From positions 1 through 64,000 of the forward strand of contig JASTWF010000331.1 in NCBI GenBank assembly GCA_030390025.1: a DNA stretch of 64,000 nt, given 5' to 3'. This stretch comes from Squalus acanthias. Lineage: Eukaryota. Shown here piece by piece: positions 1 to 55,570 of the stretch. Each line of letters starts with the position of its first letter. Within the stretch, counting starts at the first letter, position 1. Under the pieces are notes generated by a model. The model was not told the origin of the DNA, ran no database searches, and saw only the letters and a list, made by a program, of their open reading frames with translations. A program made the translations under genes and the position numbers.

Positions 1-20
1 CCACATTTAGAAGATTTTAA

Positions 21-8163: not shown

Positions 8164-9074
8164 TCATTTTTTCTGATTATTACTGAATTGAATAATTGAG
8201 GTAAGCGGATATTTCACCGCCCTCTTCACCTGCTCTCTGAACTTGGACTGGGTCACCCCATAAATAAATGTGTTTGTGCAACAACTTAAATTCCGCAGCA
8301 TATATCCGACTTTTCTAAAGATAAATAAAGAACCAGTGTAATAAAAGGGATTTGTGCCTGCAATGTTATAATATAAGAAATCTATAACATTCACCAGCCA
8401 CAGCAGTATGAAGCTGGCGGATAAGGTGAAGAGTAAAATCACAGACTTCCTTCTGCTCTCCATCTCTGGGTCTCTGCCATTCTCTCCCTTGCTCTCACCC
8501 CTCAGTCCCTTACGGACTCGACTGGCCACTAAAATGTGTCTGACTGTCAGAGCGTTGAGCAACAGAATTAAAGCGAATGGGAGCAGTGGGTTTAAAACCG
8601 CAAGAAACCAGGTAAATCCCACCCACCCGGGCTCAGTAAAAAAGTGTGTGATTGGGAAACAGTCCCTCGGCACATTGTCGATTATCCATCTGGGTTGAAA
8701 TGCAAAGTAGAGGGGAACGTTTCTTAAACAGAGCAGAATTCCGGTTGTTGCCAGAACCACAGCTGCAGTTTTCTCGTTGCAATATTTTGTTTTCAGCTTC
8801 TGGCAACAAATGGCCACAAATCGATCAAAGGTGAAAGTAACGGTGAACCAGACAGAACAGTCTGTGGCTGCATAGGTCAGGACAATCAGAACACTGCACA
8901 CAGGGGTGATGGACAGGAAACTCAATGGCAATTCATGATAACTGATCCGTTTCAGTATGACCTCAGTGACAATGAGCAGGAGATCCGCCGCTGCCATGCC
9001 CACCAGGTACCGAGTGGTGCAGGTGGAGAGCCCGCACTTTCCCCGGGACAGGATCATAATCGCCAGCAAATTCA
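8164..9074 (-). CDS. Class A GPCR, GPR139/GPR142-like, coding exon 2 (TM1 end to TM7 and C-tail), copy 1
   Basis: Uninterrupted 303-codon frame with AADLL (TM2), C3.25 (PVCS), FDRFVAICC (DRY-like), ECL2 Cys, LLP (TM5), SFILLW (TM6) and NTFIY..TQSKFR (TM7/H8). Acceptor ttctgtgttttacag at 9075-9089, phase 1. Confidence 0.93.
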
Positions 9075-9519
9075 CTGTAAAACACAGAAGGGAAAATAGA
9101 TTGGAAATTACTGATCACACGTTCCCCATGTCTGAGCCCAGACAGTAAGGGCTGGATTTTAACAACCCAAAAACTGGCGGACTGGGTTCAAGTCAGAGGG
9201 GAAAATTGAAGAATATCCCCCCGAACCCAACCCGCCTCCAACCCGCCCGCTTCCGAGTTTAACAGAGATGGGACAGGGGGCGGGCAGCGAACCGCTCCCA
9301 GGAGGCTGGATGTCAAGTTAAATAATTTAATGGAGCGGGCAGCCTCTGATTTAACCTGTTTTACAGGTTTAACTGCGGCTGGACTGGCTTCCTGGGCCAC
9401 GGTAATGATTTCACCCCATACTCCCAATTTCTACCCATCGCCCGAGCCCCCCATTGATAGAAAGCTGGGGTCGGGTTCGGACATCCCCAATACTGGGGAA
9501 TGGACACCGACCCGGGACT

Positions 9520-9775
9520 AGTCACAGCCCGGGACCGGTCACACCCCCGGGACCGGTCAAACCCCCGGGTCCGGTGAAACCCGCGGGACCGGTCACACAC
9601 ATGTGACCAGTCAAACCCCCAGGACCGTTCAAACCCCCGGGGCCGGTCAAACCCCCAGCACTGGTCAAACCCCCGGGGCCGGTCAAACCCCCGGGACCGT
9701 TTGAATCCCCGGGACCGGTCAACACCCGGGTGACCGGTAAAACCCCAAGAACCGGTCAAATCCTCGAGTCCATGA
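9520..9775. repeat. GC-rich 18-bp minisatellite (ACCGGTCAAACCCCCGGG), ~14 units
   Basis: Directly visible tandem units. Confidence 0.9.
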
Positions 9776-9822
9776 TCGGACGCACCGCGAGATCAGGCAG
9801 CCCATCCAACCCAGTTTCACAA

Positions 9823-11412
9823 AAACATAGAAACATAGAAGATAGGAGCAGGAGTAGGCCATTCGGCCCCTCGAACCTGCTGCGCCATTTAATGAGAACA
9901 TGGCTGATCATCCAAATTCAGTGCCCTGTCCCTGCTTTCTCCCGATATCCCTTGATCCCTTAAGCCTTAAGAAATATATCTAACTCCTTCTTGAATATAT
10001 TTAATGAATTGGCCTGAACTGCCTTCTGTGTTCGAGAATTCCACAGGTTCACCACGCTCTGGGTGAAGAAATTCCTCTTTATCTCAATCCTAAATGGCTT
10101 ACCCCTTTTCCTTAGACTGTGACCCCTGGTTCTGGACTGTTCCGCCATCGGGAACATCCTTCCTGCATCTAGTCTGTCTATTCCAGTTAGAATTTTATAA
10201 GTTTCAATGAGATCCCCTCTCATTCTTCTAATCTCTAACGAATACAAGCCCAATCGTACAAATATCTCGTCATACGTCATTCCTGCCTTCTCAGGTATCA
10301 GTCTGGTGAATCTTCGCTGCACTCCCTCCATGGCAAGAACACCCTTCCTCACATAAGGCGACCAAAACTGCACACAATACTCAAGATGTGTTCTCACCAA
10401 GGCCCTGTACAACTGCAGCAAGACATTTTTGTTCCTGTAGTCGAATCCTCTCGCTATGAAGGCCAAAATACCATTTGCCTTCTTAACCGCCTGCTGCACC
10501 TGAATGCTTACCTTCAACGACTGGTGCACAAGGACTCCGAGGTCTCGTTGCACTTTCCCTTTTCCCAATCTATTGCCGTTCAGATAATAATCTGCCTTCC
10601 TGTTTTTGCCACCATAGTGTATAACCTCGCATTTCTCCACATTATGCTGCATCTGCCATGCATCTGCCCAATCACCCAACTTGTCCAAATTATACTGGAG
10701 TTTATCTGCATCCTCCTCACAACACACACGCCCACCCAGCTTTGTGTCGTCTGCAAATTTGGAGATATTACATCTAGTTCACTCGTCTAGGTCATTAATA
10801 TATATTGTGAATAACTGGGGTCCTAGCACCGATCCCTGCGGTACCCCACTAGTCACTGACTGCCACTCGGAAAAATACCCTTTTATTCAAACTCTTTGCT
10901 TCCTGTCTGCAAACCAGTTCTCTATCCAAGTCAGTACCTTAACCCCAATCCCATGTACTTTAACTTTGCACGGTAATCTCTTATGCGGGACATTATCGAA
11001 AACCTTCTGCAAGTCCAAATACACCACATCCACTGGTTCTCCCTTGTCTATTCTACCAGTTACATACTCAAAAAATTCCAGTCGATTAGTGAAGCATGAT
11101 TTACCTTTTGTAAATCCATGTTGACTTTGTTCGATCATGTCACTGTTTTCCAAGTGCTCTGCTGTTACATATTTTATAACGGATTCTAGCAATTTCCCCA
11201 CTACCGATGTCAGGCTTACTGGTGTATACTTCACCGTTTTGTCTATCCCACCTTTTTTAAATTGTGGGGTAACATTAGCTGCCCTCCAATTCATGGGAAC
11301 TGTTCCAGAGTCTATAGAATTTTGTAAGATGACCAGCAATGCATCTATTATTTCTAGGGCCACTTCCTTAAGTACCCTAGGATGTAGATTATCAGGACAT
11401 GGGGATTTATCG
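9823..11412 (-). mobile_element. Young 5'-truncated CR1 LINE
   Basis: RT ORFs 9960-10727 and 10887-~11410. (catagaaa)n tail at 9825-9840. Confidence 0.95.
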
Positions 11413-11696
11413 GACCTACCTGGTGCTGCTCCGGTGTCCCCACACCCCGAACGACTTGAAGCCCTACTGTCAATCAGACTGACTTCCGGGGTGGGGAACC
11501 AGTCAAGGACAAAGGACGTACGCTGTGGAGTTAAGACACCCCAACGTCCGGGAATACCTGGACTTCCAGGTATCCTGTCTGATATTCCGCATCCACCCCG
11601 TACCCTCCGGCCATCGTACATAACCCGCCTCTATTAATATCCAGGCGGAAGTATATGAGCAAATGCAAAATACTGAGACTGCTGTAAATCTGATCA

Positions 11697-13680
11697 GAAC
11701 ATAAGAACATAAGAAATAGGAGCAAGAGTAGGCCATTCGGCCCTTCGAGCCTCCTCCACCATTCAATGAGATCATGGCTGATCTTCTGCCTCAACTCCAT
11801 TTACCGGCCCTATCGCCATATCCCTTGCTGCCCTTACTAGTCAGAAATCTATCGACTTCTGTTTTGAATATACCCAATGACTGAGCGGCCACAGCCCTCT
11901 GGGGTAGAGAATTCCAAAAATTCACCACCCTCTTTGTGAAGAAATTTCTTCTTATCTCAGTCCTGAGGCTGTGGCCCCTGGTTCGAGACTACCCAGCCAA
12001 GGGAAACATTCTCCTAACACTCACCCTATCAAGCCCTGTAATAATTTTGTTTGCTTCAATGAGATCTCCTCTCATTGTTCTGAATTCTAGAGATTACAGG
12101 CCTAGTTTACTTAATCTATTCTCATACGAAATTCCTGCCATCCCAGGAATCCATCTCGTGAACGTTCGTTGCACTCCCTCTATGGCAAGTACATCCTTCT
12201 TATGTACAATTGTACACAGTACTCCAGGTGTAGTCTCACGAAGGCCCTATATAAATGGAGTAGACTTCTTTACTCCTCTACTCAAATCCTCTTGTAATGA
12301 AGGCCAGCATACCATTTGCTTTCCTAATGGCTTGCTGTACCTGCACATTCACTTTCAGTGACTCATGTACAAGGACACCCAGAGCCATTTGAGCATCTGC
12401 AGTTCCCAAACTTTCAACATTTAGGAAATACACTGCCTTTCTGTTTTTTCTACCAAAGTAGATTACTTCACATTTATCCTCATTATATTCCATCTGCCAT
12501 GTACTCGCCCACTCACTGAGCCTGTCGAGATCCCCTTGAAGCCTCTTCACATCCTCTTCACAAATGACACTTCAACCTAGCTTCGAATCATCAGCAAATT
12601 TGGAAATGTTACATTTAGTACACTCATTCAAATCATTGATATAGATTGTGAATAGTTGGGGCCCAAGCATCGATCCTTGCGGTACCCCACGAGTCACAGC
12701 CTGCCATCCTGAAAAAGACTCGTTTATCCCTACTCTTTGTTTTCTGTCTGTTAAGCAATTCTCAAACCATATCAGTGTATTAACCCCAATTCCATGTGAG
12801 CTAATTCTGTTTACCAACCTCTTGGGTGGGAACATATCGAAGGCATTCTGAAAATCCAAATACACCACATCTACCGTTTCCCCTTTGTCAACTCCACTAG
12901 TTACTTCCTAAAGAACTCGAATAGATTTGTCAAACAGGACTTCCCTGTCATAAATCCATGTTGACTCTGTCCAATATTACTATTAATTTCTAAGTGCCCA
13001 GTTATTGCATCCTTTATAATAGGTTCCAGCATTTTCCCAACTGCTGATGTGAGACTAGCAGATCTGTAGTTTCCCGTTTTCTCTCTCCCTCCTTTCTTAA
13101 ATACTGGGGTTACATTTGCTATCCTCCAATCTGCAGGAACCGTTCCAGCATATATAGAATTTTGGAAGATGATAACCAATGCGTCCACTATCCCAATGGT
13201 CACCTCTTTCAAAACGCTAGAATGTAGGTCGTCCGGACCTGGAGATTTATCGACTTTTAGTCTCATTCATTTTGCTGGTGCTGTTTTTTTACGAATAATA
13301 ATTTCTTGAAGTTCCTCATTCTCTCCACACCCTTGGTTTTCTCGTATTTCTGGGAGGTTTTTCGTGTCTTCCTCCGTGAAGACAGAAACAAAGTATGTAT
13401 TTAATTTCTCAGCCATTTCCTCATTCCCCATTATACATTATCCCGTCTCTGACTGTAAAGGACCTATATTTACTTTCGCCAGTCTTTTCATTTTCACATA
13501 CCAATAAGAAGCTTTTACAATCCGTTTTTATATGTTTTGCCAGTTTGTGCTCATATTCCATTGTCCCTTTCTTTGTCAATTTCTTGGTCCCCCTTTGCAG
13601 ATTTCTAAAAACATCCCAATCCTCAGGCTGATCGTGTTTTCTGGCAACTTTATAAGCTTCCTCCTTTTACTTAATACGAG
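11697..13680 (-). mobile_element. 5'-truncated CR1 LINE
   Basis: RT fragments (KSPGPD, YLDFQ, PQGSMLGP, FADD). (aagaacat)n tail at ~11697-11716. Confidence 0.93.
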
Positions 13681-13689
13681 CTTTAATTT

Positions 13690-15090
13690 ATTAGAAAAGA
13701 CAATGCTGAAAACACTCAGCGGGTCAGGCAGCAGCGGTGCAGAGGGAAACAGAGTTAACATTTCAGATCGATGACCTTTCATCAGAAATGGAAGATCTCA
13801 GAGATTAACAGTATTAAAGCAATGATAGAGTCAGAGAAAATTGCGGTTGCATAAGGAAAGAACAATGTCTGTGATTGGCTGGAGGGCAGGAGTAACTCAA
13901 TGACAAAAGGGATGAAGGTGCAAGGCGAATGGGACAATGAAAGAAACAGAAGATGGTTCTACAGGAGGTGTAAATGGTTACAGCAGAATAACCAGGGGGA
14001 GGGGTAGTAGGGCACATATGGCAGAGAAAGTTGGGTAGACCCCAGGTGTTTGGACCAGCCCGCTGGCCGTGTACCGATATCGCCACTCCATGCCCCAGCC
14101 CACACCTCCTCCACTCCCAGTGGCTCTGGTTGAAACGTCCTCCATTACCAGCACATGTCGTCCGAGAAAACGGGAGCGGAAGTTATGATTTGAAGTTTTT
14201 AATCTAAGTGTTGAGTCCGGAAGGCAATAAAATGCCTAACCAAAAAATACGGTGATGTTCCTCATTTGAGGAGGCCCAGAACAGAGAGTTCAGAGTGTGA
14301 GTGGGATGTAGAATAAAAGTGGCAAGTGACCTGAAGCTCAGGATCAAACTTGCGGACTGAACGGAGGCGTTCAGCAAAGCAATCACTCAATCTGCATTTC
14401 GTCCACCCAATGTACAGGAGACTGGATCGTAGGCAACGAATATGATACACTAAATTGGAAGAAGTACAAGTAAATTAATCTTTCACGTGGATGGAATGTT
14501 TGGGGCCCTTGCTGGAGGGATGGAAAGACTGGAAAGGGCGTAAGTTGCATCACCTGCACTTGCACAGGAAGGTGCCGGGGAATGGGAGCAGATCTTCGGG
14601 GTGACGGAAGAGTGGATCAGGGTGTCACGAGGGCCGGGAGGACAGTAGGGCAGGTGGCCTTAACTGGACATGACGGAAATGGCAGAGGATGATCCGTTGA
14701 ATGTGAAGTCTGGTGCAGTGAACGCTGAGGACAAGTGGAACCCTATCTAGGTTCTAGCAGGGATGACAGGGGTGATGGCAGCAACACAGGATTGACACGG
14801 TCGAGGTACCTGTCAATCACAATGGAGCTGAATATCCGGCTGAGGAAATATGAAGACATTTCGGAAGCACTGTTGTGGAAGGTGATATCGTTAGAACATG
14901 TGCAACTGAAGCGGAGTAACTTTGAGAATAGAATAGACACCTTAGAGGAAGCTGCGTGGTAGGAGGTCTACACAAGATTCCTGTGGGAGCCGGTGGGTTA
15001 TTGTAGATATTGGTGGGCGGCCTAGCCCCTGAAATGGAGATAGAGAAGCCGAGTAAGGGAAGGGAAGACCACTGTGGTTCACCATTTCCA
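13690..15090 (-). mobile_element. Penelope-like retroelement remnant (GIY-YIG endonuclease and 3' region)
   Basis: YHIRCLRSSLLYIGWTKCRLSDCFAERLRSV...VTCHF...LSVLGL (14262-14450), a Penelope-type GIY-YIG domain. Confidence 0.85.
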
Positions 15091-15183
15091 TGTTATTCCT
15101 GTATTTAAAATCGATGATAGAACAATTCCAAGGATTTACAGGAGACTGGATCGTGGCCAGCGAATATGATATACTAAATTGGA

Positions 15184-16486
15184 AACATAGAAATATAGAA
15201 ACATAGAACATAGAAGATAGTAGCAGGAGTAGGCCATTCGGCCCCTCGAGCCTGCTGCGCCATTTAATGAGATCATGGCTGATCATACAAATTCAGTACC
15301 CTGTCTCTGCTTTCTCCCAATATCCCTTGATTCGTTTCGCCTTAAGAAATATATCCAACTACTTCTTTAATATATTTAATGATTTGGCCTCAAATGCCTT
15401 CTGTAGTAGAGAATTCCGCAGGTTCACCACTCTCTGGGAGAAGAAATTGCTCCTCATCTCAGTCCTAAATAGATTACCACTTATCCTTTGACTGTGACCT
15501 CTGGTTCTGGAATGCCCCGCCATCGGGAACATCCTTTCTGCATCTAGTCTTTCTAGTCCTGTTAGAATTTTAAAACTTTCAATGAGATCCCCTCTCATTC
15601 TCCTAAACTCTAGCGAATACAAGCCCAATCGACCCAATCTCTCTTCATACGTCATTCCTGCCATCCCAGGTATCAGTCTTGTGAATCTTCGCTGCACTCC
15701 CTCCAAGGCAAAAACATCCTTTCTCAGGAGGGGACCAAAACTGTACACAATACTCAAGGTGTGGTCTCACCAATGCCCTGTACAACTGCAGCAAGACAGC
15801 CTTGCTCCTGTACTCGAATCCTCTCGCTATGAAGGCCAACATACCATTTGCCTTCTTAACCACCTGCTGCACCTGCATGCTTACCTTCAGCGACTGGTGC
15901 ACAAGGACATCCAGGTCTCGTTGCACTTCCCCTTTTACCAATCTATTGACGTTCAGATAATAATCTGTCTTCCTGTTTCTGCCACCAAAGTGGATAACCT
16001 GGCATTTATCCACATTATACTGTATCTGCCCAATCACGCAACCTGTCCAATTCATGCTGGATTTTCTCTGCTTCCTCCTCACAGCACACACGCCCACCCA
16101 GCTTTGTGTCATCTGCAAACATGGAGACATTACATTTGTTCCCTAGTCTAGATCATAAATATATATTGTGAATAGCTGGGGTCCGAGCACCGATCCCTGC
16201 GGTACCCCACTAGTCACTGCCTGCCATTCGGAAAAATATGCGTTTATTCCAAGACTGCTTCCTGTCTGCCAAACAGTTCTCTATCCAAGTCAGTACCTTA
16301 TCCCCAATCACACGTGCTTTAACTTTGCACGCTAATCTATTATGCGGGACATTATCGAAAGTCTTCTGAAAGTCCAAATACACCATATCCACTGTTTCTC
16401 CCTTATCTATTCTAACAGTTACATCCTCAAGTCATTCCAGTAGATTATTCCAGCACGATTTACCTTTTGTAAATACATGTTGACTT
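15184..16486 (-). mobile_element. Young 5'-truncated CR1 LINE
   Basis: RT ORFs 15359-15757, 15645-16130 and 16210-16392. (catagaa)n tail at 15186-15215. Confidence 0.93.
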
Positions 16487-17130
16487 TGAAGAAGTACAAA
16501 TAAATTAGTCTTTCACGTGGATGGATTGTTTGGGGCCCTGGCTGGTGGGATGGAAAGAGGGGAAAGGGCAGCTGTTGCATCTCCTGCGCTTGCATAGAAA
16601 GGTGCCGCGGAAGGGGAGCAGATGTTAGTGGTGACGGAAGAGTGGACCAGGGTGTTGCGAGGGCCGAGGGGACGGGAGGGCAGGGGAAGATAATTTTGTT
16701 TCTGGCCTTAGCTGGACACGATGGAAATGGCAGAGGATGATCCGTTGAATGTGAAGGCTGGTGCAGTGGAATCTGAGGACAAGGGGAACCCTGGGTTCTA
16801 GCTGGCAAGTCAAGGGGTGATGGGTGCAATGCAGGATTGACACGGTCGAAGGCTCTGTCAATCACAATGGAGGTGAATACTCGGCTGAGGAAATATGAAG
16901 TCTTTTCGGAAGCACTGGTGTGGAAGGTGGCATCGTTAGAACATATGCAACGGTGGTGGAGAAACTTTGAGAATAGAATATAGCCCTTCCAGGAAGCCGG
17001 GTGGAAGGATCTCTCCTCAAGATTCCTGTGGGAGTTGCTGGGATTATAGTAGATATTTGTGGACGGCCTAGCCCCTGAAATGGAGATCGAGAAGTCGAGG
17101 AAGGGAAGGGAAGACCACTGTGGTTCACCA
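16487..17130 (-). mobile_element. Duplicated Penelope-like segment (copy of ~14458-15085)
   Basis: Collinear similarity to 14458-15085, e.g. gcagaggatgatccgttgaatgtgaa and ggaagaccactgtggttcaccattt. Confidence 0.85.
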
Positions 17131-17134
17131 TTTA

Positions 17135-19270
17135 CATGTTATTCCTGTATTTAAAATGGATGATAGAACAATTCCAAGGATTTACAGACCAGTTAGCATA
17201 ACCTCGATGGTAGTAAAGATAGTGGAATAATTACTCAAAGATGTAACAGAAAACCATATACAAACAGAAAATATAAGAACGAGTAGTCAACAGCTATTCC
17301 AAAAGGGAATCATAGAATGGTTACTGCACAGAAGGAGGCCATTCGGCCCGCCGAGCCCGTGCACACTCTCTGCACATGCACTGCAGCTAATCCCAATCCC
17401 CGCCCTTTCCCCGTAGCCCTGCAATTCTTTTCCTTCAGGTATTTATCCCATTTCCTTTTAAAAGCCAAAATTGAATCTTCCTCCTCCACCCTTTCAGAAA
17501 CTGCATTCCAGATCTCAACCACTCACTGCCTTAAAAAGTTTTTCCTCATGTCACCTCTTGGACCATCAGCACATCACCTAAATCCTCTGCTCGCTGGTTC
17601 TCGTCCGTTCCACCAATGGGAACAGCTTCTCTCGATCTACTCTGTCTACTCTGTTGCGAACCCTCATGATTTTGATCACCTCTATCAAATCTCCTCTCAA
17701 ACTGCTCTGCTCTAACGACAACAACTCCAGCTTATCCAGTCTATCCACGTAAGTGAAGTCCCTCATCCCTGGAACCATTCTTGTAAATCTTTTCTGCACC
17801 CTCGCTAAAGCCTTCATGCCCTTCCTAATGTGCAGAGCCCAGAATTAGACACAATACTCCAGTTGTGGCCGAACCAATGTTTTATAAATGCTTATCATAA
17901 CTTCCTTGCTTTTGTACTCGTTGCCTCTATTTATAAAGCTCAGATTCCCGTAAGCATGTTTAACCGCTTTCTCAACCTGCCCTGCCACCTTCAACGATTT
18001 TTGTACTTGTACCCTCAGGTCACTCAGTTCCTGCACCCCCTTTAGAATGTCTTGCTTGAGTATACTTAGTGAATTCTTTGAATAAGTACCAGAAAGAGTA
18101 GATAAGGGTAATGCAGTAAATGCAAAAGACTTTGGTTTTTTAAAGCCATTCGATAAGGTACCACATAGCAGACTGAATCAGAGAGCAAGTGGAGTTCGGA
18201 GACAAGCAGCAAAATGGATAGCAAGATGGCTGCAAGAACAGAAAATAGGGAGTAGTGGATAAAGTTATTTAATCAGATAGGTGGATGGTGAGAAGTGATG
18301 TTCCACAATGATCGGCGTTGCGAACCCTGTTGTTCACCATTTAGATAAACGATATTGATTCGGGAAGCAGAAGCACAAATTCAAAATGTGCAGATGAATT
18401 CAAATTGAGAATAAAGTTAATGCAGAGGAAGAATGCAACACAATACCTGAAGACATTAATAAACTTGCAGAAAGGGCGTTTAAATGGAAAATTTATTTCA
18501 ATATAATTAAGTGAGAGGTACTGCATTTTGGTAGGAAGAATAAGGTTCCCAAATACTCCTTGGAAAATCAGAGTGGGAATGGGGTAGAGGGGTACCGATT
18601 AACAAATCATTTAAAGTAGCAATGCATGTTAACAATGCCAGAACATGCAAACAAAACATTGGCTTCATTTCTCGAAGAGTAGAATCGTAAAGAAACGAGG
18701 TTAGCTTAAACTTATACAGAACCTTGGTTATACCACACTGAGCGAACTGTGTGCAGTTCTGATCTCCATATTACATAAAGGATATTAAGGCTCTGGAGAA
18801 AGTGCAATTTTTTTTACAAGGATGTCACCAAAACTGAGACATTATAATCATCAGGAAAGATTGAACAGGCTGGGGCTCCTTTCTTTACCAAAGAGAAGGC
18901 TGAGGGGTGGCCTAATAGAGGCCTTTAAATTCTGAAGGGGTAACATAGGGTAGATGTTTATACTTGAGACGTGAGTGCAAAATTGGTGATTATCGATAAA
19001 AGATAGTCACTAATAAATCCAATACGGAATTGTGGAGAAATGTCCTTACTCTCAGAGATAGGTTAGAATGTGGAACTCGCTACAACTTGGAGTACTTGAG
19101 GCGAATAGCAGAGATGCATTTAAGGGGAAGCGAGAGAAGTACACGAGGTAGAAAGCAGTAGAATGTTATGCTGATAGGGTGAGATGAAGAGGGGTGGGAG
19201 AAGGCTCCTGTGGAGCATAAACACTGGCATAACCTAGTAGGGCCGAATGGCCTGTTTGTGCTGTAAATTC
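17135..19270 (+). mobile_element. Old CR1 (shared with the copy 2 intron) interrupted by a minus-strand CR1 at 17311-18044
   Basis: Decayed RT and 3' end ggccgaatggcctgtttgtgctgt. Collinear with 52290-53730. Confidence 0.8.
17311..18044 (-). mobile_element. Nested CR1 3' fragment
   Basis: KTLVRPQLEYCV and LEQSSLRGDLIEV motifs. Flanked by GAAT on both sides. Absent at the paralogous site (~52500). Confidence 0.85.
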
Positions 19271-19867
19271 TAAAGAGTTCTCCGTAACTTGAGTACAAAT
19301 TAATCACTTTCATCAGATCATTTAATCATTGCGGATATTGAAGCGTTTTATTTATTGAAGTATTGCCCTATATATTACATTTTTATACATTTATTAATGA
19401 TCTGTGTATTATGAAAACCGGATATGCATGTTCTTCAGTTATACGTGTCTCTCCTCGCAGGGACTCACCTCACTGAGCTAAGGCCAGAGTTCGGTGCAGG
19501 TTACCTGTGTCGAGACTCTGAATCAGAGATAAGAACTGGTTCGTCAATTCTTAATCAGTTACAGAAGTGGAATAAACAATAACCACAGCCCAATATTCAT
19601 CCCGTCTAACGGTAACATAATGACATTTAGCACTCATGACCCACAGATTCTCAGGACTGTGTTGGGGGAAGGGGATTAATCAGCACCAAAATAATTAAAG
19701 TGTTTACAATAACTATACATAGAGTAAGAATAAGTCATTATACAGAAGATTTGAATATTGTAACACTGCTGTCCTGCTGTTTACCCGTCAGTAATTAGTT
19801 AACATCTGTTTATGTTTGTGCAGTTCAATAGGAAACAAAGCATTATCAGTACAAGAACCTTATATAT

Positions 19868-20368
19868 GAACATAAGAAAATAAGAAATAAGAGCAGGAGT
19901 AGTCCATACGGCCCCTCGAACCAGCTCCGCCATTCAATAAAATCATGGCAGATCATCGACCTCAAAAGCCCTTTCCTGCCTGATCTCTTTATCACTTGAT
20001 TCCCGTGGAGTCCAACAACCATCTATCTAAGTCTTGAATATAATTAAAGACACAGCATTCACAGGCCTCTGGGGCAGGGAATTCCAAAGATTCACAAACC
20101 TCTGAGTGACGAATATCCTTCTCCTCTCAGGTTCAAAAGGCCCACCCCTTATCCTGAGCCTATGCCCCCTAGTTCTAGACATGCCTACCAGGGGAAACAA
20201 CCTCTCAGCATCTAATGCTGGCAATTCACTTCAGAATCTTGTATGTTGCAATGAGATCACCTCTCATTCTTCTAAACTGCAGAGAGTACAGGCCCATTCT
20301 ACACAATCTCTCATCATAGGACTACCCTTTCATCCCAGAAATCAATATCGTGAACCTTCGCTGCAGCG
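19868..20368 (-). mobile_element. CR1 3' fragment
   Basis: LDAERLFPLVGMSRTRGHRLRIRG...VNLWNSLP with a tail at ~19868-19890. Confidence 0.88.
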
Positions 20369-20512
20369 CGTCATATGCTTCTAACGAAACTTCTTCAACC
20401 AACAACAAAAATCTTCCCATTTGCCATTGATTCCATTGAGAAAACACGAATGCAGCTCCCTGAAGGAGAGAGATCAAAAATCTAAAATAATAATTTAAAA
20501 TTGGAACCGACT

Positions 20513-20990
20513 TGTTCCACTCCGGTTAGTTACCCACACTCAGTACAATTCTACAGTGAGCGATACACTCAGTAATAAATGGCCACTGGGGTCAGGTTTT
20601 ACAATCCGGTTAGTGACACACAATCAGCAGTTCTACAGTGACAGATACTCCGAGTAATACATGATCACTGGGGTCAGGTGTTCCACTCCTGTTAGTGACC
20701 CACACTCAGTACAATTCTACAATGACAGATACTCCCAGCAATACATGGCCAATGGGGTCAGGTGTTCCACTCCGGGTAGTAACCCACACTCAATAGTTCT
20801 ACAGTGACAGATATCCCAGTAATACATGGCCACTGGGGTCAGGTGTTTCACTTCGGTTAGTGACCAACACTCAGTACAGTTCTACAATGACAGATACTCC
20901 GAGTAATACATGGCCACTGGGGTCAGATGTTCCACTCCGGTTAGTGAACCACACTCAGCAGTTTTACAGTAACAGATACTCCCAGTAATA
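20513..20990. repeat. ~84-bp minisatellite, ~5-6 units (copy 1 intron)
   Basis: Unit ggccactggggtcaggtgttccactccggttagtgacccacactcagtacaattctacagtgacagatactcccagtaatacat, recurring at ~20581, 20662, 20747, 20828 and 20912. Confidence 0.9.
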
Positions 20991-21055
20991 CCTTCTCTCA
21001 GCGTGTTACTTACACTGAGCTCTGATTCAACAGTACACAATATTACTGTAAAGGC

Positions 21056-21797
21056 AATGGCCCAAAAATTCGTGAGGAAGCCTTCGTGCGAGGGTAAGGC
21101 CTCCCCGCGATCTCTCACTCCGCGTTGGCTTTTTCAGTTCCAGCTCGCACGAACTTGATGTTCTGGACAGCTGCTGTGCTGGGCTTGCGTATCCCACCGG
21201 CGTAGTTAATTCGTGCGAGCTGTGGGATCACGTGACTCAGTTAGAGCCAATGGCAGCACACCATCTTCCATTCATAACTTTCACATAAGTGCTGTGAAAG
21301 TTATGAATACTATAGCCCCCCAAAAGAACCGCTAAACCTCAATTAATTTAAAAAAACCATCACATTAATAAAATAAGTATAATTAAATAAATTAACCATT
21401 TTAAATAAAAAATTTAATTTTTGAAAAAATTTAAAATCTTTTAAAAAGTTATAAAAATAAACTTACCTGTCTTTAAAGTCTCTAAAAAAGATATACCTGT
21501 TAAAAAAAATCAAATTAATACTTAATTCACTGCTTACCTTGTTAAAAGTGGGTCTTACTCCTTTTTTTATGTGTAGAATCTTCCGTACTTACCTGCGCGT
21601 TGAAACCACTAAGTGCACAGCGTGCGCGCAGACTGTAGCGCGCACGCGGTTCACCTAGGACCCGCCCCCTTTTCCATTCACCAAGTGCCGGTTTTCAGCG
21701 CATGCGCAATGCATGCAGAAATCCGGCAATTGGAGACAGAATACGCGAGAGTACGCAGTGCGTACTCTCGCGTAGCGGCACTAATTTTTGGGCCATT
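21056..21797. mobile_element. MITE with perfect 15-bp terminal inverted repeats
   Basis: aatggcccaaaaatt (21056-21070) and aatttttgggccatt (21783-21797), with an AT-rich core. The empty site gcaataactt is at ~55269-55278 in copy 2. Confidence 0.85.
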
Positions 21798-22033
21798 AAC
21801 TTCTTAACACAGCGAGCCCGTGAGTTACAAACAGAGTTTTACTTTCAGTTGAGGCAATGGAATAAAACCTCAGAGGTAATTCAGGTCATTTGACTAAACG
21901 AAATGTTATCACTGATCGTGTATCTGTATAACGGTGACGACTAGATCAGGATGCAACATTATCAGACACAGAGTAAAACCAGAGACCCGGACACACAGAG
22001 ATTGACACAACTTCAATAGTTATAATCACTTAC

Positions 22034-22100
22034 CAGGAACACCGATGACGGCAATGATCACGTAGCATATTTTCTGCACACTGAGATATGTGCCAATCAT
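22034..22100 (-). CDS. GPR139-like GPCR coding exon 1, copy 1 (MIGTYLSVQKICYVIIAVIGVP)
   Basis: ATG at 22098-22100, 22 codons + 1 nt, then donor GTAAGT. The leftover G joins TG AAT of exon 2 to give ...IGVP-VNLLAI, restoring TM1 with N1.50. A paralogous exon of identical length is at 55504-55570. Confidence 0.88.
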
Positions 22101-22186
22101 TTTCTGTGTGAAGCGATGTGTCCCTTTGTGCTGCAGGCAATCTCTCTGAATTAAACTCTGAGGCGGGACATTCCCAGAGCCTTTCA

Positions 22187-22192
22187 TTTATA
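22187..22192 (-). promoter_or_regulatory. TATA box (TATAAA) of GPCR copy 1
   Basis: 87 bp upstream of the exon 1 ATG. The same motif occurs at the same distance in copy 2 (55657-55662). Confidence 0.6.
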
Positions 22193-22616
22193 CACTGCGG
22201 GATCTCCACGGGGAAATTGAGGTTGCAACATCGCTGAAAATGCTATTTAAAAAAAAATTTGAACAAACAGATGACAGCCGAGTTAATTCCCTGTTATGAT
22301 GGAATATATTTTGTGCTGAGATTGTAATTGAAAACCCCAAAGACCGAAGAATTCTGATCACATGAATTAACTATTGGAAATTGCCAGCTGTATTCTCCCA
22401 GCAATGGGGTTGTTTTTGCAAACACCACCAGGCCCATCTCTAGACCTCATATTGTTTCGGTGATGTCCTTCACTCTGCTGTGGCCAGTCAGTAATTAAAT
22501 TCCAAATGTTAGAGTGCACTCTCAGGGCTTTTCTGCTGCACTCTGGGATGCGGCTGTCCGCCTTAACTGTGGCCATTTAGTTAAACAATTCAACAGGGGA
22601 ATTTGTATCAATGGAT

Positions 22617-25600
22617 CCTCAAATTAATAGAGTACCTCAAATAATACAGTCCCTCAAACTAATGCAGCCACTCAAACTAATAAAGCTCCTCAAACTAATC
22701 AATCCCCTCAAACTAATACAGTTCCTCAAACTAATACAGCCCCTCAAACTAATACAGCTCCTCAAACTAATACAGCCCCTCAAACTAATACAGTTCCTCA
22801 AACTAATACAGACCCTCAAACTAATACAGCCCCTCAAACTAATACAGCTCCTCAAACTAATACAGACCCTCAAACTAATACAGCCCCTCAAACTAATACA
22901 GCCCCTCAAACTAATGCAGTCCCTCAAACTAATACAGCCCCTCAAACTAATACAGTCCCTCAAACTAATACAGTTCCTCAAACTAATACAGTTCCTCAAA
23001 CTAATACAGACCCTTAAATAAATACTACCCCTCAAACTAAAACAGGCCCTCAAACTAATACAGCCCCTCAAACTAATACAGCCCCTCAAACTAATACACC
23101 CCCTCAAACTAATACAGCCCCTCAACCTAATACTGCCCCTCAAACTAATACAGCCCCTCAAACTAATACAACCCCTCAACCTAATACTGCCCCTCAAACT
23201 AATACAGCCCCTCAAACTAATACAGCCCCTCAAACTAATACAGCCCCTCAAACTAATACAGTACCTCAAACTAATACAGCCCATCAAACTAATACAGCCC
23301 CTCAAACTAATACAACCCCTCAACCTAATACTGCCCCTCAAACTAATACACCCCCTCAAACTAATACAGCCCCTCAAACTAATACAGCCCCTCAAACTAA
23401 TACAGCCCCTCAAACTAATACAGTACCTCAAACTAATACAGCCCATCAAACTAATACAGCCCCTCAAACTAATACAGTACCTCAAACTAATACAGCCCCT
23501 CAAACTAATACAGTACCTTAAACTAATACAGCCCCTCAAACTAATACAGCCCCTCAACCTAATACTGCCCCTCAAACTAATACACCCCCTCAACCTAATA
23601 CCCCCTCAAACTAAAACAGGCCCTCAAACTAATACAACCCCTCAACCTAATACTGCCCCTCAAACTAATACAACCCCTCAACCTAATACAGCCCCTCAAA
23701 CTAATACAGTACCTCAAACTAATACAGTACCTCAAACTAATACAGACCCTCAAACTAATACAACCCCTCAACCTAATACTGCCCCTCAAACTAATACACC
23801 CCCTCAAACTAATACAACCCCTCAACCTAATACTGCCCCTCAAACTAATACACCCCCTCAACCTAATACCCCCTCAAACTAAAACAGGCCCTCAAACTAA
23901 CAGAGTCGCTAAAACTAATACAGCCGCACAAACGAATACAGCCCCTCAAACAAATACAGCGCCTCAAACTAATAGAGCCCCTCAAACTATTACAGCCCCT
24001 CAAACAAATACACCACCTCAAACTAATAGAGCCCCTCAAACTATTACAGTCCACTCAAAATAATACAAAACCTCAAGCTAATACAGCACCTCAAACTAAT
24101 ACACACCCTCAAACTAATACAGCCCATTACACTAATACAGACCATAAAACAAATACAGACCCTCAAACTAATACACCCCCTCAAACTAATACACCTCCTC
24201 AAACTAATACAGCCCCTCAAATTAATACAGTCCCTCAAACTAATACAGCTCCTCAAAATGATACAGTCCCTCAAACTAATACAGCCTCTCAAACTTATAC
24301 AGCCCATCCAATTACTACAGCACATCAAACTAATAGAGCCCCTCAAACTATTACAGCCACTCAAACTAATAAAGCCCCTCAAACTAATAGAACCCCTCAA
24401 ACTAATAAAAACCCTCAAACTAATAAAGCCCCTCAAACTAATACAAACCCTCAAACTAATAAAGCCCCTCAAACTAATACTACCCCTCAAACTAATACAA
24501 CCCCTCAAACTAATACAAACCCTCAAACTAATACAAACCCTCAAACTAATACAAACCCTCAAACTAATACAAACCCTCAAACTAATACAGACCCTCAAAC
24601 TAATACAAACCCTCAACCTAATACAGCCCCTCAAACTAATAAAGCCCCTCAAACAAATACAGCCCCTCAAAATAATACAGCGCCTCAAACTAATAGAGCC
24701 CCTCAAACTATTACAGCCACTCAAACTAATACACAACCTCAAGCTAATACAGCCCCTCAAACAAATACACCACCTCAAACTAATAGAGCCCCTCAAACTA
24801 TTACAGCCACTCAGAATATTACAAAACCTCAAGCTAATACAGCCCCTCAAACTAATACACACCCTCAAAATAATACAGCCCATTACACTAATACAGACCA
24901 TAAAACTAATACAGACCCTCAAACTAATACAGTTCCTCAAACTAACACAGCACCTCAAACTAATACAGACCCTCAAGCTAATACAGACCCTCAAACTAAT
25001 ACACACCCTCAATTATTACAGCCCATTAAACTAATACAGCCTCTCAAACTAATAGAGAACCTCAAATTAATACACCCCCTCAAACTAATACACCCCCTCA
25101 AACTAATACAACCCCTCAACCTAATACTGCCCCTCAAACTAATACACCCCCTCAAACTAATACAGCCCCTCAAACTAATACAGCCCCTCAAACTACTACA
25201 GCCCCTCAAACTAATACAGTACCTCAAACTAATACAGCCCATCAAACTAATACAGCCCCTCAAACTAATACAGTACCTCAAACTAATAAAGCCCCTCAAA
25301 CAAATACAGCCCCTCAAAATAATACAGCGCCTCAAACTAATAGAGCCCCTCAAACTATTACAGCCACTCAAACTAATACACAACCTCAAGCTAATACAGC
25401 CCCTCAAACAAATACACCACCTCAAACTAATAGAGCCCCTCAAACTATTACAGTCCACTCAAAATAATACAAAACCTCAAGCTAATACAGCACCTCAAAC
25501 TAATACACACCCTCAAACTAATACAGCCCATTACACTAATACAGACCATAAAACTAATACAGACCCTCAAACTAATACACCCCCTCAAACTAATACACCT

Positions 25601-28600
25601 CCTCAAACTAATACAGCCCCTCAAATTAATACAGTCCCTCAAACTAATACAGCTCCTCAAAATGATACAGTCCCTCAAACTAATACAGCCTCTCAAACTT
25701 ATACAGCCCATCCAATTACTACAGCACATCAAACTAATAGAGCCCCTCAAACTATTACAGCCACTCAAACTAATAAAGCCCCTCAAACTAATAGAACCCC
25801 TCAAACTAATACAAACCCTCAAACTAATAAAGCCCCTCAAACTAATAAAGCCCCTCAAACTAATACAAACCCTCAAACTAATAAAGCCCCTCAAACTAAT
25901 ACTACCCCTCAAACTAATACAACCCCTCAAACTAATACAAACCCTCAAACTAATACAAACCCTCAAACTAATACAAACCCTCAAACTAATACAGACCCTC
26001 AAACTAATACAAACCCTCAAACTAATACAGACCCTCAAACTAATAAAGCCCCTCAAACTAATACAACCCCTCAACCTAATACAGCCCCTCAAACTAATAA
26101 AGCCCCTCAAACAAATACAGCCCCTCAAAATAATACAGCGCCTCAAACTAATAGAGCCCCTCAAACTATTACAGCCACTCAAACTAATACACAACCTCAA
26201 GCTAATACAGCCCCTCAAACAAATACACCAGCTCAAACTAATAGAGCCCCTCAAACTATTACAGCCACTCAAAATATTACAAACCCTCAAGCTAATACAG
26301 CCCCTCAAACTAATACACACCCTCAAACTAATAAAGCCCCTCAAACTAATACAACCCCTCAACCTAATACAGCCCCTCAAACTAATAAAGCCCCTCAAAC
26401 AAATACAGCCCCTCAAAATAATACAGCGCCTCAAACTAATAGAGCCCCTCAAACTATTACAGCCACTCAAACTAATACACAACCTCAAGCTAATACAGCC
26501 CCTCAAACAAATACACCACCTCAAACTAATAGAGCCCCTCAAACTATTACAGCCACTCAAAATATTACAAAACCTCAAGCTAATACAGCCCCTCAAACTA
26601 ATACACACCCTCAAACTAATACAGCCCATTACACTAATACAGACCATAAAACTAATACAGACCCTCAAACTAATACAGTTCCTCAAACTAACACAGCACC
26701 TCAAACTAATACAGACCCTCAAGCTAATACAGACCCTCAAACTAATACACACCCTCAATTATTACAGCCCATTAAACTAATACAGCCTCTCAAACTAATA
26801 GAGAACCTCAAATTAATACACCCCCTCAAACTAATACACCTCCTCAAATTAATACACCCCCTCAAACTAATACACCTCCTCAAACTAATACAGCCTCTCA
26901 AATTAATACAGTCCCGAAACCTAATACAGTGCCTCAAAGTAATACAGACCCTCAAACTAACACAGTCCCTCAAACTAATACAGCCCCTCAAACTAATACA
27001 GTCCCTCAAACTAATACACACCCACAATTATTACTGCCCATTAAACTAATACAGCCTCTGAAACTAATACAGCCCCTCAAACTAATACAGTCCCTCAAAG
27101 TAATACAGGCCCTCAAACTAATACAGCCCCTCAAACTAATACAGTCCCTCAAACTAATACAGCCCCTCAAACTAATACAGTCCCTCAAATTAATACAGCC
27201 CCTCAAACTTATACAGCCCCTCAAACTAATACAGTCCCTCAAAATAATACAGCCCCTCAATCTAATACAGTCCCTCGAACTAATACAGTCCCTCAAACTA
27301 ATAAAGCCCCTCAAACTAATACTGTCCCTCAAAGTAATACAGTCCCTCAAAGTAATACAGCCCCTCAAACGAATACAGCTCCTCAAACTAATACAGCTCC
27401 TCAAACTAATACAGTACCTCAAACTAATACAGCACCTCAAACTAATACAGCCCCTCAAACTGATACAGTCCCTCAAACTAATACAGCACCTCAAACTGAT
27501 ACAGCTCCTCAAACTAATACAGTACCTCAAACTAATACAGCACCTCAAACTAATACAGCCCCTCAAACTAATACAGCCCCTCAAATTAATACAGCACATC
27601 AAACAAATAGAGCCCCTCAAACTAATAGAGCCCCTCAAACTATTACAGCCTCTCAAACTAATACACAACCTCAAGCTAATACAGATCCCTCAAACTAATA
27701 CAAAACCTCAAACTAATAAAAACCCTCAAACTAATACAAACCCTCAAACTAATACAGCCCCTCAAACTAATAAAGTCCCTCAAACTAATACAACCTCTCA
27801 AACTAATAAAACCTCTCAAATTGATACAGCACATCACAATAATGCTACCCCTCAAACTAATAGACCCCCTCAAACTAAGATATCCCCTCAAACTAATGCT
27901 CCCCTTAAACTAAAATAGCACGTCAATCTAATACAGCCAATAAAAGTAATACTGCCCCTCAAACTAATAGAGTCCCTCAAACTAATACAGCTCCTCAAAC
28001 AAATACAGCGCCTCAAACTAATACATCCCCTCAAACTAATAGAGCCACTCAAAGTAATACTCACCCTCAAACTAATACAGCCCCTCAAAATTATCCAGCC
28101 CCTGAAACTAATACACCCCCTGAAACTTATACACTCCCTCAAATTAATACATCCCCTCAAAATAATACTGCCCCTCAAACTAATACAGCACCTTAAACTA
28201 ATACAGCCTCTCAAACTAATACACCACCTCAAACAAATCCAATCCCTCAAACTAATAAAGTCCCTCAAACTAATCCAGCCCCTCAATCTAATACAGCCCC
28301 TCGAACTAATAAAGCTCCTCAAACTAATACAGCCCCTCAAACTAATACACCGCCTCAAACTAATACAGCTTCTAAAACTAATAAAGCCCCTAAAACTAAT
28401 GGAGCCCCTCAAACTTAAGCAACTCCTAAAACTAATACAGACCCTCAAACTAATACAGCTCCTTCAAAACTAATACACCCCCTCAAACTAATACAGCCCC
28501 TCAAACTAATACAGACTATAAAACTCATACAGCCCCTCATACTAATACAGCCCCTCAAACTAATACAGCCTTTCAAACTAATACAGCTCCTCAAACTAAT

Positions 28601-31600
28601 ACTCCCCCTCAAACTAATACACCCTCTCAAACTAATAGAGCCACTCAAAGTAATACACACCCTCAAACTAATACAGCACCTCAAAATAATCCTGCCCCTG
28701 AAACTAATACACCCCCTGGAACTTATGCACTCCCTCAAATTAATACATCCCCTCAAAATAATATAACCACTCAAACTAATACAACCCCTTAAACTAATAC
28801 AGCACCTCAAATTAATGCAGCCCCTCAAACTGATCCAGCCACTCAATCTAATACAGCCCCTCGAACTAATACACCACCTCAAGCTAATCCAGTCCCTGAA
28901 ACTAATACATCCCCTCAAACTAATACAGCACATCAAATGTATACAGCACATCAAACGAATACAGCCTCTCAAACTAATACAGCCCCTCAAACTAATACAG
29001 TACCTCAAAATAACACAGCCCCTCAAACTAATACAGCTCCTCAAACTAATACTGCCCCTCAAAGTAATACAGCCCCTCAAACTAATACAGTACCTCAAAC
29101 TAATACAGCCCCTCAAACTAATACAGCCCCTCAAACTAACACAGCCGATCCAACTAATACAGCTCCTCAAACTAATACAGCCCCTCAAACTAATACAGCC
29201 CCTCAAACGAATACAGTCCGCCAAAATAACACAGCTCCTCAAACTAATACAGTACCTCAAACTAATACAGCCCCTCAAACTAATACAGTATCTCAAACTA
29301 ATACAGCCCCTCAAACTAACACAGCCGATCCAACTAATATAGCTCCTCAAACTAATACAGCCCCTCAAACTAATACAGTCCCTCAAACTAATACAGCCCC
29401 ACAAATTAATAAAGCCCCTCAAACTAATACAGCTCCTCAAACTAATACAGTACCTCAAACTAATACAGCCCCTCAAACTAATACAGCCACTCAAACTAAT
29501 AAAACCTCTCAAACTAATACATCACATGAAAATAATACAGAAACTCCAAATAATAGATCTCCTCAAACTAAGAAATCCCCTCAAAATAATACAACCCATT
29601 TAACTAAAATAGCACATCAATCTAATACAGCAAATCAAAGTAATACTGCCCCTCAAACTAATAAAGACGCTCAAACTAATAGAGCACCTCAAACGAATCC
29701 AGTCCCTCAAACTAATACAGCCCTTCAAACTAATACACCCCCTCAAAATAATACAGCACCTCAAATTAATACAGCACATCAAACTAATACAGCCCCTCAA
29801 AATAATACAGCACCTCAAATTAATACAGCACATCAAACTAATACAGCCCCTCAAACTATACAGCAACTCAAACTAATACAAACCCTCAAACTAATACAGC
29901 CCCTCAAACTAATACAGCACCTCAAACTAATACACCCCCTCAAACTAATAAAACCTCTCAAACTGATACAGCACATCACAATAATGCATCCCCTCAAAAT
30001 AATAGACCCCCTCAAACTAAGATATCCCCTCAAACTAATGCACAACCTTAAACTAAAATAGCACGTCAATCTAATACAGCAAATAAAAGTAATAGTGCCC
30101 CTCAAACTAATAGAGTCCCTCAAACTAATACACCCTCTCAAACTAATAGAGCCACTCAAAGTAATACACACCCTCAAATAATACAGCACCTCAAAATAAT
30201 CCAGCCCCTGAAACTAATACACCCCCTGAAACTTGTACACTCCCTCAAATTAATACATCCCCATAAAATAATATAACCACTCAATCTAATACAACCCCTT
30301 AAACTAATTCAGCACATCAAACTAATATACCCTCTCAAACTAAAACAGCACATCAAACTAAAATTGCACATCAAACTAATACAGTCCCTCAAATTAATGC
30401 AGCCCCTCAAACTAATAGAGCCCCTCAATCTAATACAGCCCCTCAAACTAATCCAGCCACTCAAACTAATACAGCCCCTCAAACTAATACAGCCCCTCGA
30501 CCTAATACACCACCTCAAGCTAATCCAGTCCCTCAAACTAATACAGCCCCTCAAAGTAATACAGCACATCAAATGAATACAACACATCAAACTAATACTG
30601 CCCCTCAAACTAAAACAGCCCCTCAAACTAATACAGACCCTCAAACTAATAAAGCTGCTCAAACTAATACAGCCCCTCAAACTAATACACCGTCTCAAAC
30701 TAATACAGCTTCTAAAACTAATAAAGCTCCTTAAACTTATGCAGCCCCTCAAACTTAAGCAACTCCTAAAACTAATACAGACCATCAAACTAATACAGCC
30801 CCTTAAACTAATACAGCTCCTCCAAAACTAATACTCCCCCTCAAACTAATACATCCCCTCAAACTAATACAGACTATCAAACTAATACAGCCCCTCATAC
30901 TAATACAGCCCCTCAAACTAATACAGTCTTTCAAACTAATACAGCTCCTCAAACTACTACTCCCCCTCAAACTAATACAGCCCCTCAAAGTAATACACCG
31001 CCTTAAAATAATACACCCCCTCAAACTAGTAACCCTCATCAAACTAATACACCCCCTCAAACTAATAAAGTACCTCTAAATAACACAGCCCCTCAAACTA
31101 ATACAGCTCCTCAAACTAATACTGCCCCTTAAACTAATACAGCCCCTCAAACTAATACAGTACCTCAAACTAATACAGCCCCTCAAACTAATACAGCCCC
31201 TCAAACTAATACAGCCCCTCAAACTAATACAGTACCTCAAACTAATACAGCCCCTCAAACTAATACAGACCTCAAACTAATACAGCCCCTCAAACTAATA
31301 CTGCCCCTTAAACTAATACAGCCCCTCAAACTAATACAGCCCCTCAAACTAATACAGCCCCTCAAACTAATACAGACCTCAAACTAATACAGCCCCTCAA
31401 ACTAATACAGTACCTCAAACTAATACAGCCCCTCAAACTAACACAGCCGATCAAACTAATACAGCTCCTCAAACTAATACAGCCCCTCAAACTAATACAG
31501 CTCCTCAAACTAATACAGCCCCACAAACTAATACAGTCCGCCAAACTAATACAGTTCCTCAAACTAATACAGCTCCTCAAACTAATACAGTTCCTCAAAC

Positions 31601-33255: not shown

Positions 33256-33479
33256 TACGGATCCTCTAACTTGTTGTCAGACCCGCCCACCACCTCTCTG
33301 GTCAAAAGTCGTGTAATCTCTTGTTCCCACAAACTCACAGTGCCCGGGATCTCACTTGCCAGACACTATGAGGTCATTACCAGACTAACAAGAACTGATT
33401 ATACAGATTATTTGAACAGCTAAACAATGCGAATTCTAAATCTATATTTAATGTCTTAAGTTTATTTCTGTTAAGTTAG

Positions 33480-48157: not shown

Positions 48158-48508
48158 GAGACAGAGCAGAGTGCAGGTTGTTGCTAGAACCACAGCCGCA
48201 GTTTTATCGGTGCAATATTTTGTTTTCAGCTTCTGGCAACAAATGTTGACAATTCCATCAAAGTGAAAATGACGGTGAACCAGACAGAACAGTCTCTCTG
48301 GCTGCAGCGGTCAGGACAAAGATAACACTACACATAGGGGTGATGTCCAGGAAAGACAATGGGAAATAATACGCATTGATCTGCCTCAGTATGACCTCAG
48401 TGATAATGACCAGTAGATCCGTCGCTGCCATGGCCATCAGGTAGCGAGTGGTGCAGTTGGAGAGCCCGCACTTTCCCCGGGACAGGATCACAATCGCCAT
48501 TAACTTAA
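48158..48508 (-). pseudogene. GPR139-like GPCR copy 2, exon 2 remnant (TM1 to TM4)
   Basis: Acceptor tcttttttacag at 48509-48520. Reads VKLMAIVILSRGKCGLSNCTTRYLMAMAATDLL..., paralogous to copy 1. N1.50 is changed to K, there are frameshifts at ~48295 and ~48260, DRF is degraded, and the exon is truncated by a CR1. Confidence 0.92.
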
Positions 48509-55503: not shown

Positions 55504-55570
55504 CAGGAACAACAATGATGGCAAGGATAATGTAGTATATTTTCTCGACAAATTGAATTGGTCGATGCAT
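55504..55570 (-). pseudogene. GPR139-like GPCR copy 2, exon 1 (MHRPIQFVEKIYYIILAIIVVP)
   Basis: ATG at 55568-55570, 67 nt, donor GTAAGT, paralogous to 22034-22100. The exon is intact, but its exon 2 is broken. Confidence 0.85.

Follow-up and report, generated by a model that had tools for sequence, protein, structure and literature searches.

The question raised by this locus is whether an open reading frame that begins in the middle of the first transmembrane helix (TM1) of a receptor, directly after a splice acceptor, belongs to an intact gene and, if so, what such a receptor might be for. The frame lies in the window analysed here, the 64,000 nucleotides (nt) from position 1 to 64,000 of contig JASTWF010000331.1 of Squalus acanthias (assembly GCA_030390025.1), and an earlier note on the same DNA had proposed that a distant first exon completes it to a G protein-coupled receptor (GPCR) resembling GPR139. 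Our analysis indicates that this gene, referred to below as gene A, is a real and intact-looking two-exon class A GPCR gene, on its predicted splicing, and that it belongs to a family of sharks and rays that is very large and in which the copies differ most in the predicted ligand pocket. We tentatively read it as part of a repertoire of sensors diversified for their ligands.

The first point to establish is the structure of the gene (Table 1). Exon 1 ends in a GTAAGT donor directly after position 22034, in phase 1, and exon 2 is preceded by a pyrimidine tract and a CAG ending at 9075; joined, the two exons make 978 nt, encoding 325 amino acids and a stop codon with no internal stops. The proposal of a receptor of about 325 amino acids completed by a hidden 67-nt exon was thus borne out by coordinates, phase and open frame, and it gains further support from the score of exon 1 against a profile of the family's first exons and from colinearity with a second copy in the window, paralogue B. 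The proposed repeat-filled intron of about 13 kb also stood, with 52% of its length resembling the coding sequence of long interspersed nuclear elements (LINEs) and 87% matching other stretches of the window, the intron of paralogue B included. No poly(A) hexamer lies within 2.4 kb of the gene A stop, which is not diagnostic. An 18-bp GC-rich tandem array is found near the acceptor, at 9528–9760.

Paralogue B is a dead copy, and the whole unit of promoter, exon, intron and exon has been tandemly duplicated. Identity between A and B is 80% in the exon 1 region and 78% in the exon 2 region, and their introns (12,959 versus 6,995 nt) are colinear in at least six blocks, that of gene A being longer mainly through extra LINE copies, two of which are 85–86% identical to the element at 44–48 kb. 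Because the unit was duplicated as a whole, exon 1 is tied to exon 2 independently of any protein similarity.

The family profile was a position matrix built from 61 homologue N-termini (64 minus three that were visibly mis-modelled). Ahead of exon 2, 64 of the 120 best homologues carry an N-terminus of 21–26 amino acids that begins with Met, and in the models of 18 the start side reads like a translated pyrimidine tract at the exon 2 boundary. Exon 1 of gene A scores 52.1, compared with 32.6–62.0 for the family members that served as its training set. In the six frames of the whole window there is a single other high site, at 55570–55504 (47.7), and the next best reaches 5.2; in the controls, the best scores were 3.4 inside the gene A intron and 9.3 in 20 shuffled introns.

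Other starts for the gene were considered and rejected. An alternative first exon within the intron is opposed by the matrix maximum there, and of the five open ATG...GT[AG]AG phase-1 candidates between 9075 and 22600, the four other than exon 1 all lie in LINE fragments. Exon 2 as an intronless gene would need its 13 open codons upstream of the acceptor, which are the pyrimidine tract; the 18 database models mentioned above share such read-through. Assignment of exon 1 at 22100 to a different gene is ruled out by the colinearity with paralogue B. Finally, the frame also holds an ATG 87 nt farther upstream. It overlaps the TATA box and has no counterpart in paralogue B, and is therefore probably not transcribed.

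The predicted product has seven TM helices and helix 8, and its sole Pfam match is 7tm_1. An AlphaFold2 model of exon 2, with a predicted local distance difference test score of 87.6, contains TM helices, a hairpin in extracellular loop 2 (ECL2) and helix 8; the outer part of TM1, encoded by exon 1, was placed by hydropathy and alignment. Transmembrane prediction on the spliced product, which had been suggested as a check, was successful for TM1 to TM6, which exceed the hydropathy threshold, but not for TM7, which falls below it although it is a helix in the predicted structure. The marks of class A that are present comprise N1.50, D2.50, C3.25 with an ECL2 cysteine, D/E-R3.50, P5.50, W6.48, N7.49 and Y7.53. 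The canonical DRY, CWxP and NPxxY motifs are absent, with DRF, no P6.50 and NTFIY in their place throughout the family; bona fide class A members also vary in these motifs, an example being TM7 of GPR139.

The almost absent extracellular N-terminus, FDRF and NTFIY had been picked out earlier as features of this receptor. All are indeed present, but they are family traits rather than peculiarities of gene A: FDRF and NTFIY each occur in 54 of 55 close paralogues, and a short N-terminus is common down to amphioxus relatives. Gene A matches the profile of the expansion in having a 22–23-residue first exon, FDRF, NTFIY and a length of about 325 amino acids. It departs from nine conserved columns, against a family median of seven (range 1–13), and since 19 of 56 rows depart from nine or more it is not an outlier. 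Against the Protein Data Bank (PDB), the best profile match is GPR139, with an expectation value (E) of 5.4e-30, followed by a neurotensin receptor (9.8e-24). Foldseek ranks GPR139 fourth, with all matches at E of about 1e-8, so that GPR139 is not separated from other peptide receptors, and an Atlas search returned just the automatic name.

The size of the family is evident from the homologue search, in which 2,607 of 4,988 candidate proteins matched at E≤1e-20. The best 120 of these are 61–77% identical; 119 belong to sharks or rays identified by name, and 117 bear the label GPR139. By hand count at least 64 of the 120 are from Heterodontus, 27 of them on a contig of one size, and at least 31 are from Pristiophorus. 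There are 116 representatives at 50% identity with E≤1e-30, and nine of ten divergent representatives that were looked up are from named sharks, skates or rays. No chimaera member was seen among the 120 listed matches and the ten divergent ones looked up.

Relatives outside the expansion consist of one anchovy protein, amphioxus proteins and two clades. Clade I comprises coelacanth, sharks, sturgeon, teleosts, amphibians and reptiles, and clade II comprises 20 amphibian proteins and one sturgeon protein, one match per species. In a careful maximum-likelihood tree of 36 rows, with canonical GPR139 and GPR142 left out, the 18 elasmobranch rows form a clade (95/89) with clade II as its sister (100/99), and gene A nests in a 100/99 subclade within it, as it does in a quick tree of 64 rows. 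The approximately unbiased test did not reject a constrained tree that unites the expansion with clade I (p-AU 0.058). With that alternative in mind, the tree places gene A in an old GPR139-like branch, its nearest non-shark relative being the single-copy amphibian and sturgeon gene. The earlier suggestion of a lineage-specific paralogue holds in that gene A is one of very many elasmobranch copies, but not in the sense of a recent GPR139 duplicate.

Both clades share the short N-terminus of gene A, and clade I apparently shares its intron position. Out of 118 bony-vertebrate and shark clade I models, 33 lose the exon-1 pattern up to the boundary residue of gene A, 58 are normal, 26 start later and one is of another kind; because 33 models break at the same residue, the intron in the middle of TM1 is likely to be old. 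The distant first exon of gene A is thus, judged by these gene models, an ordinary one, with an intron that appears ancestral and an exon 1 already present in many database models. Sharks keep their own conserved clade I gene alongside the expansion, and the one coelacanth protein that was found groups with clade I rather than with gene A. Clade II proteins such as XP_069092602.1 of Pleurodeles share FDR[FY] and a DPE-containing motif of intracellular loop 3 and TM6 with the expansion, at 30% identity over 300 residues; unlike the expansion, they occur at one match per species and have an almost invariant pocket.

Part of this broad branch already has names. GPR139-related orphans of fishes, coelacanth and amphibians have been called GPR210A and GPR210B (Rinne et al. 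2019, PMC6504862) and 'Orphan 139-like' (Table 1 of PMC5207463). In the available text of these two sources they are genes of bony vertebrates and no shark expansion is named; the words shark and cartilaginous are absent from that of PMC6504862. As a side observation, two clade I proteins, one from a shark and one from a frog (P0281 and P0379), carry the annotation of TMEM183A isoforms. This suggests TMEM183A as the neighbour of the conserved single-copy clade I gene, and as a possible synteny anchor.

We then come to where the paralogues vary. Across 55 close paralogues, 155 of the 302 alignment columns reach 90% conservation or more, and the variation is concentrated on the outer side: entropy is 1.17 bits in the outer half of the helices and 0.41 in the inner half (p=1e-16). 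This skew is missing in 40 clade I orthologues (1.22 outer, 1.21 inner) and reversed in 18 of clade II (0.37 and 0.62). A set of 28 pocket positions was defined from a list of class A contacts, the pocket and the helix halves being placed by hand from motif anchors, and was compared with the 41 other outer-helix positions. Pocket entropy is the higher in 30 Heterodontus paralogues (1.35 versus 0.71, p=0.0006), in 20 Pristiophorus paralogues (1.07 versus 0.67, p=0.013) and in 22 divergent members (2.50 versus 1.94, p=0.001), whereas in the single-copy sets it is the lower (0.68 versus 1.17 for the 40 of clade I; 0.10 versus 0.49 for the 18 of clade II). Among the sites of greatest variability are 3.29, 3.32, 3.33, 7.35 and 7.39, together with the pair of residues that follow the ECL2 cysteine. 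One signalling face combined with many pockets would be the pattern of a repertoire, and argues against both pure dosage gain and pure drift. Clade II keeps F3.33, W6.48, K6.51 and N7.39; because this pocket is close to the tryptophan (Trp) and phenylalanine (Phe) site of GPR139, an ancestral ligand of amino-acid or peptide type is plausible, although these residues give no more than a hint of it.

The explanation that we favour, at somewhat less than even odds, is that gene A belongs to a sensor repertoire diversified for its ligands, the use of which is most likely chemosensory. The family is large and tandemly arranged, with pseudogenes and a hypervariable pocket, as in chemoreceptor-type repertoires. 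Those of the olfactory receptors (OR), TAAR, V1R, FPR and MRGPR likewise have tandem clusters, pseudogenes, a short N-terminus, a conserved inner face and a variable pocket; the present family differs in having no sequence membership of any of them (Pfam gives 7tm_1 alone) and in its intron-split coding sequence. GPR139 signals through Gq or Gi. In the mechanism that we propose, the TATA promoter would give an mRNA with a short leader from which the 13-kb intron is spliced out, and the receptor, having almost no ectodomain, would hold a small ligand within the bundle of helices, beneath the hairpin of ECL2. By analogy with GPR139, all family members would signal via the same G protein (Gq or Gi), each tuned to different ligands. 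These would most likely be external chemical cues, amino acids or short peptides in type, that sensory or epithelial cells detect.

Several points weigh against this reading. In catshark, the 50 most specific genes of a library from brain and olfactory epithelium include no GPCR, according to the available part of PMC11979771. Gene A itself has arginine in place of an ECL2 tryptophan that is invariant in the other 55 paralogues, and its ECL1 YYF motif also differs. The entropy sets were hand-picked from full-length matches, and neither columns nor sequences are independent, so that the p-values are optimistic. Similarly, the family counts are drawn from the best 120 of the 2,607 matches, a total that mixes species and alternative gene models. 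The ratio of nonsynonymous to synonymous substitution rates (dN/dS) between A and B is 1.18 over 135 codons, being 1.97 in the outer part (53 codons) and 0.74 in the inner part (82 codons); these counts are small, B is dead, and no clear purifying signal is seen. Lastly, pocket divergence points to differing specificity, yet it does not distinguish sensory from immune use.

It is this last point that gives the main rival its place. Mammalian formyl-peptide and MRGPR receptors sense microbial or damage peptides, and the same diversified repertoire might be used in host defence, as receptors of leukocytes or barrier epithelia for such peptides. Hypervariable pockets, the gain and loss of tandem copies and the conservation of the cytoplasmic face fit this equally well, and the nearest folds include receptors for peptides and chemoattractants, though in that comparison the scores of all class A receptors are similar. 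On the other hand, neither FPR, MRGPR nor the chemokine receptors are linked to it by sequence more closely than GPR139 and the neurotensin receptors, and we consider immune use possible but doubtful.

Growth of the family mainly through drift, in clusters rich in repeats and prone to recombination, with gene A left open but silent or redundant, is unlikely. The surroundings do lend themselves to this view: next to gene A lies a pseudogene truncated by a LINE, the units are flanked by satellites, dN/dS between A and B is near 1, and many database models lack exon 1 (the short first exon is present in 64 of 120), which may reflect scarce transcript support. Drift alone does not sit well, however, with half of the columns being so highly conserved among the paralogues and with variation that tracks the pocket instead of being even. 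Moreover, the frame, splice sites and TATA spacing of gene A are intact while its intron flanks have diverged from those of B by 0.26–0.31 changes per site, and the family persists across sharks, skates and rays.

Less probable still is a family reading endogenous signals, such as metabolites or neuropeptide fragments. Its nearest characterised relative does so: GPR139 responds to Trp, Phe and peptides derived from POMC, and its agonist site comprises E3x32, F3x33, H5x43, W6x48, R6x51 and N7x38 (available part of PMC7318219). Frozen pockets in the single-copy clades are also what a fixed endogenous ligand would lead one to expect. A few endogenous ligands are nevertheless hard to reconcile with species that each have dozens of copies differing in their pockets, and gene A has T, Y, L or A, W, N and Y at the six agonist positions, so that one of the six (W6.48) is identical.

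Human GPR139 (PDB 7vug, 9m42) and its relative GPR142 resemble gene A in class A fold, in W6.48 and in a TM7 without the NPxxY proline, and GPR139 is its best characterised match by both sequence and profile. In the sequence alignment, GPR139 differs in having DRY, P6.50 and no TM3 cysteine at 3.25, where gene A has DRF, V6.50 and the cysteine pair of C3.25 and ECL2. GPR139 is, furthermore, a single conserved gene, its mouse, chicken and zebrafish orthologues being 96, 92 and 70% identical to the human protein (PMC7318219, available part), while gene A sits in a large expansion, with a second copy in the window and many copies per species, and differs at five of the six agonist-site residues. 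That gene A is the shark orthologue of GPR139, as might be supposed from the label 'probable' or 'putative GPR139' on 117 of the 120 listed homologues and from the two coding exons of GPR139 itself (same source), is extremely improbable, given the many copies per genome, a match to human GPR139 of E=1.3e-8 with 21% identity in structural alignment, well short of the zebrafish value, and the better matches to human GPR139 of coelacanth clade I (1.8e-18) and amphibian clade II (2.6e-13). The earlier view that gene A is a paralogue and not the GPR139 orthologue is upheld by this low identity, by the pocket residues and by the copy number.

Returning to the diversified sensor repertoire, the exon structure of gene A is already in database gene models, and what is apparently undescribed is the family itself, as a large receptor repertoire. 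A literature search, which reached few subscription papers, found no paper describing the elasmobranch expansion; terms for it had no match in PMC10620051 or in 12 of the 24 supplement files of PMC8455134, and no description was found in the available parts of PMC12294341 and PMC7270403. New in this analysis are the single-copy amphibian and sturgeon sister group and the controlled pocket test. We would go further with some reserve, the following being possible but rather less than an even chance: that this is an undescribed large chemoreceptor family of sharks and rays, independent of OR, TAAR, V1R and V2R, which may have arisen by mass tandem duplication of one GPR139-like orphan that is single-copy with a frozen pocket in amphibians and sturgeon, and of which gene A would be one tuned member.

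The available text of PMC8455134 portrays cartilaginous fishes as having few GPCRs and olfactory receptors. This contrasts with a family of at least dozens of copies per species whose divergence is focused on the pocket. One genome paper removed families of more than 100 copies before its expansion analysis (PMC12361510, available part), which suggests how such a family could be overlooked. Gene A alone is one more member of an automatically annotated family, and it is the family that matters more: if sensory, it would change the picture of shark chemical sensing, and if immune, it would amount to a repertoire of innate receptors that has gone unrecognised. Through the single-copy sister gene, which Xenopus and salamanders carry, the ancestral ligand becomes open to testing in laboratory animals.

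Table 1. Positions in the 64,000-nt window of gene A, paralogue B and neighbouring repeats
Feature	Position	Strand	Description
Gene A exon 1	22034–22100	minus	67 nt, 22 codons + 1 nt; ATG at 22100; short N-terminus and outer half of TM1
Gene A intron	9075–22033	minus	Phase 1, 12,959 nt, GTAAGT...CAG; filled with fragments of CR1/L2-type LINEs; colinear with the paralogue B intron (6,995 nt)
Gene A exon 2	8164–9074	minus	911 nt including stop; runs from the inner half of TM1 through helix 8; matches Pfam 7tm_1 (E=1.1e-19)
Gene A TATAAA box	22187–22192	minus	First base 92 nt before ATG; spacing equal to that of paralogue B; putative promoter
84-bp tandem repeat in gene A intron	20513–20991		Counterpart in paralogue B intron, 54301–55190
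Paralogue B TATAAA box	55657–55662	minus	Same spacing to ATG as in gene A
Paralogue B exon 1	55504–55570	minus	67 nt, open, GTAAGT donor
Paralogue B exon 2 remnant	48160–48508	minus	About 116 codons; frameshifts near 48298 and 48263; R3.50 codon changed; ends in TM4
CR1-type LINE	44320–48158	minus	GDSL esterase ORF1 (first open reading frame), endonuclease, reverse transcriptase, short 3' TTCTATGT repeats; adjoins and cuts paralogue B
18-bp satellite	22617–33258		About 592 copies; begins about 520 nt upstream of the gene A ATG

The 3' half of paralogue B exon 2 was not found in the 64-kb window. On the promoter side, the flank of gene A (22101–22580) differs from that of paralogue B (55571–56051) by 0.16 changes per site, less than the intron flanks, which is consistent with constrained regulatory sequence. 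A short degenerate version of the 18-bp satellite lies upstream of paralogue B, at about 56177–56455.

Within the B intron, a 73-nt segment at 51523–51595 (minus strand) is about 84% identical to the start of exon 2 and is missing from the colinear intron of A (about 13750–13764); it would be either a small inserted gene fragment or the remnant of a third copy. The same intron holds a 44-bp tandem array of 48 copies (49094–51213), and 38- and 68-bp tandem arrays are found upstream of B, at 57005–57555.

Where the 3' half of B would be expected there is a 22-bp satellite of about 452 copies (34374–44325), in which frames recur at about 3.1 and 2.9 kb, a spacing that suggests higher-order duplications. 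Between this and the 18-bp satellite lies an inverted fragment of a CR1-type ORF1 encoding esterase (33686–34370, plus strand), which resembles the end of the LINE that cuts B and is possibly part of the rearrangement that removed the 3' half of B. At the start of the window (11–934, plus strand), two frames without a Pfam match at E≤0.001 resemble a broken transposase of Harbinger type.

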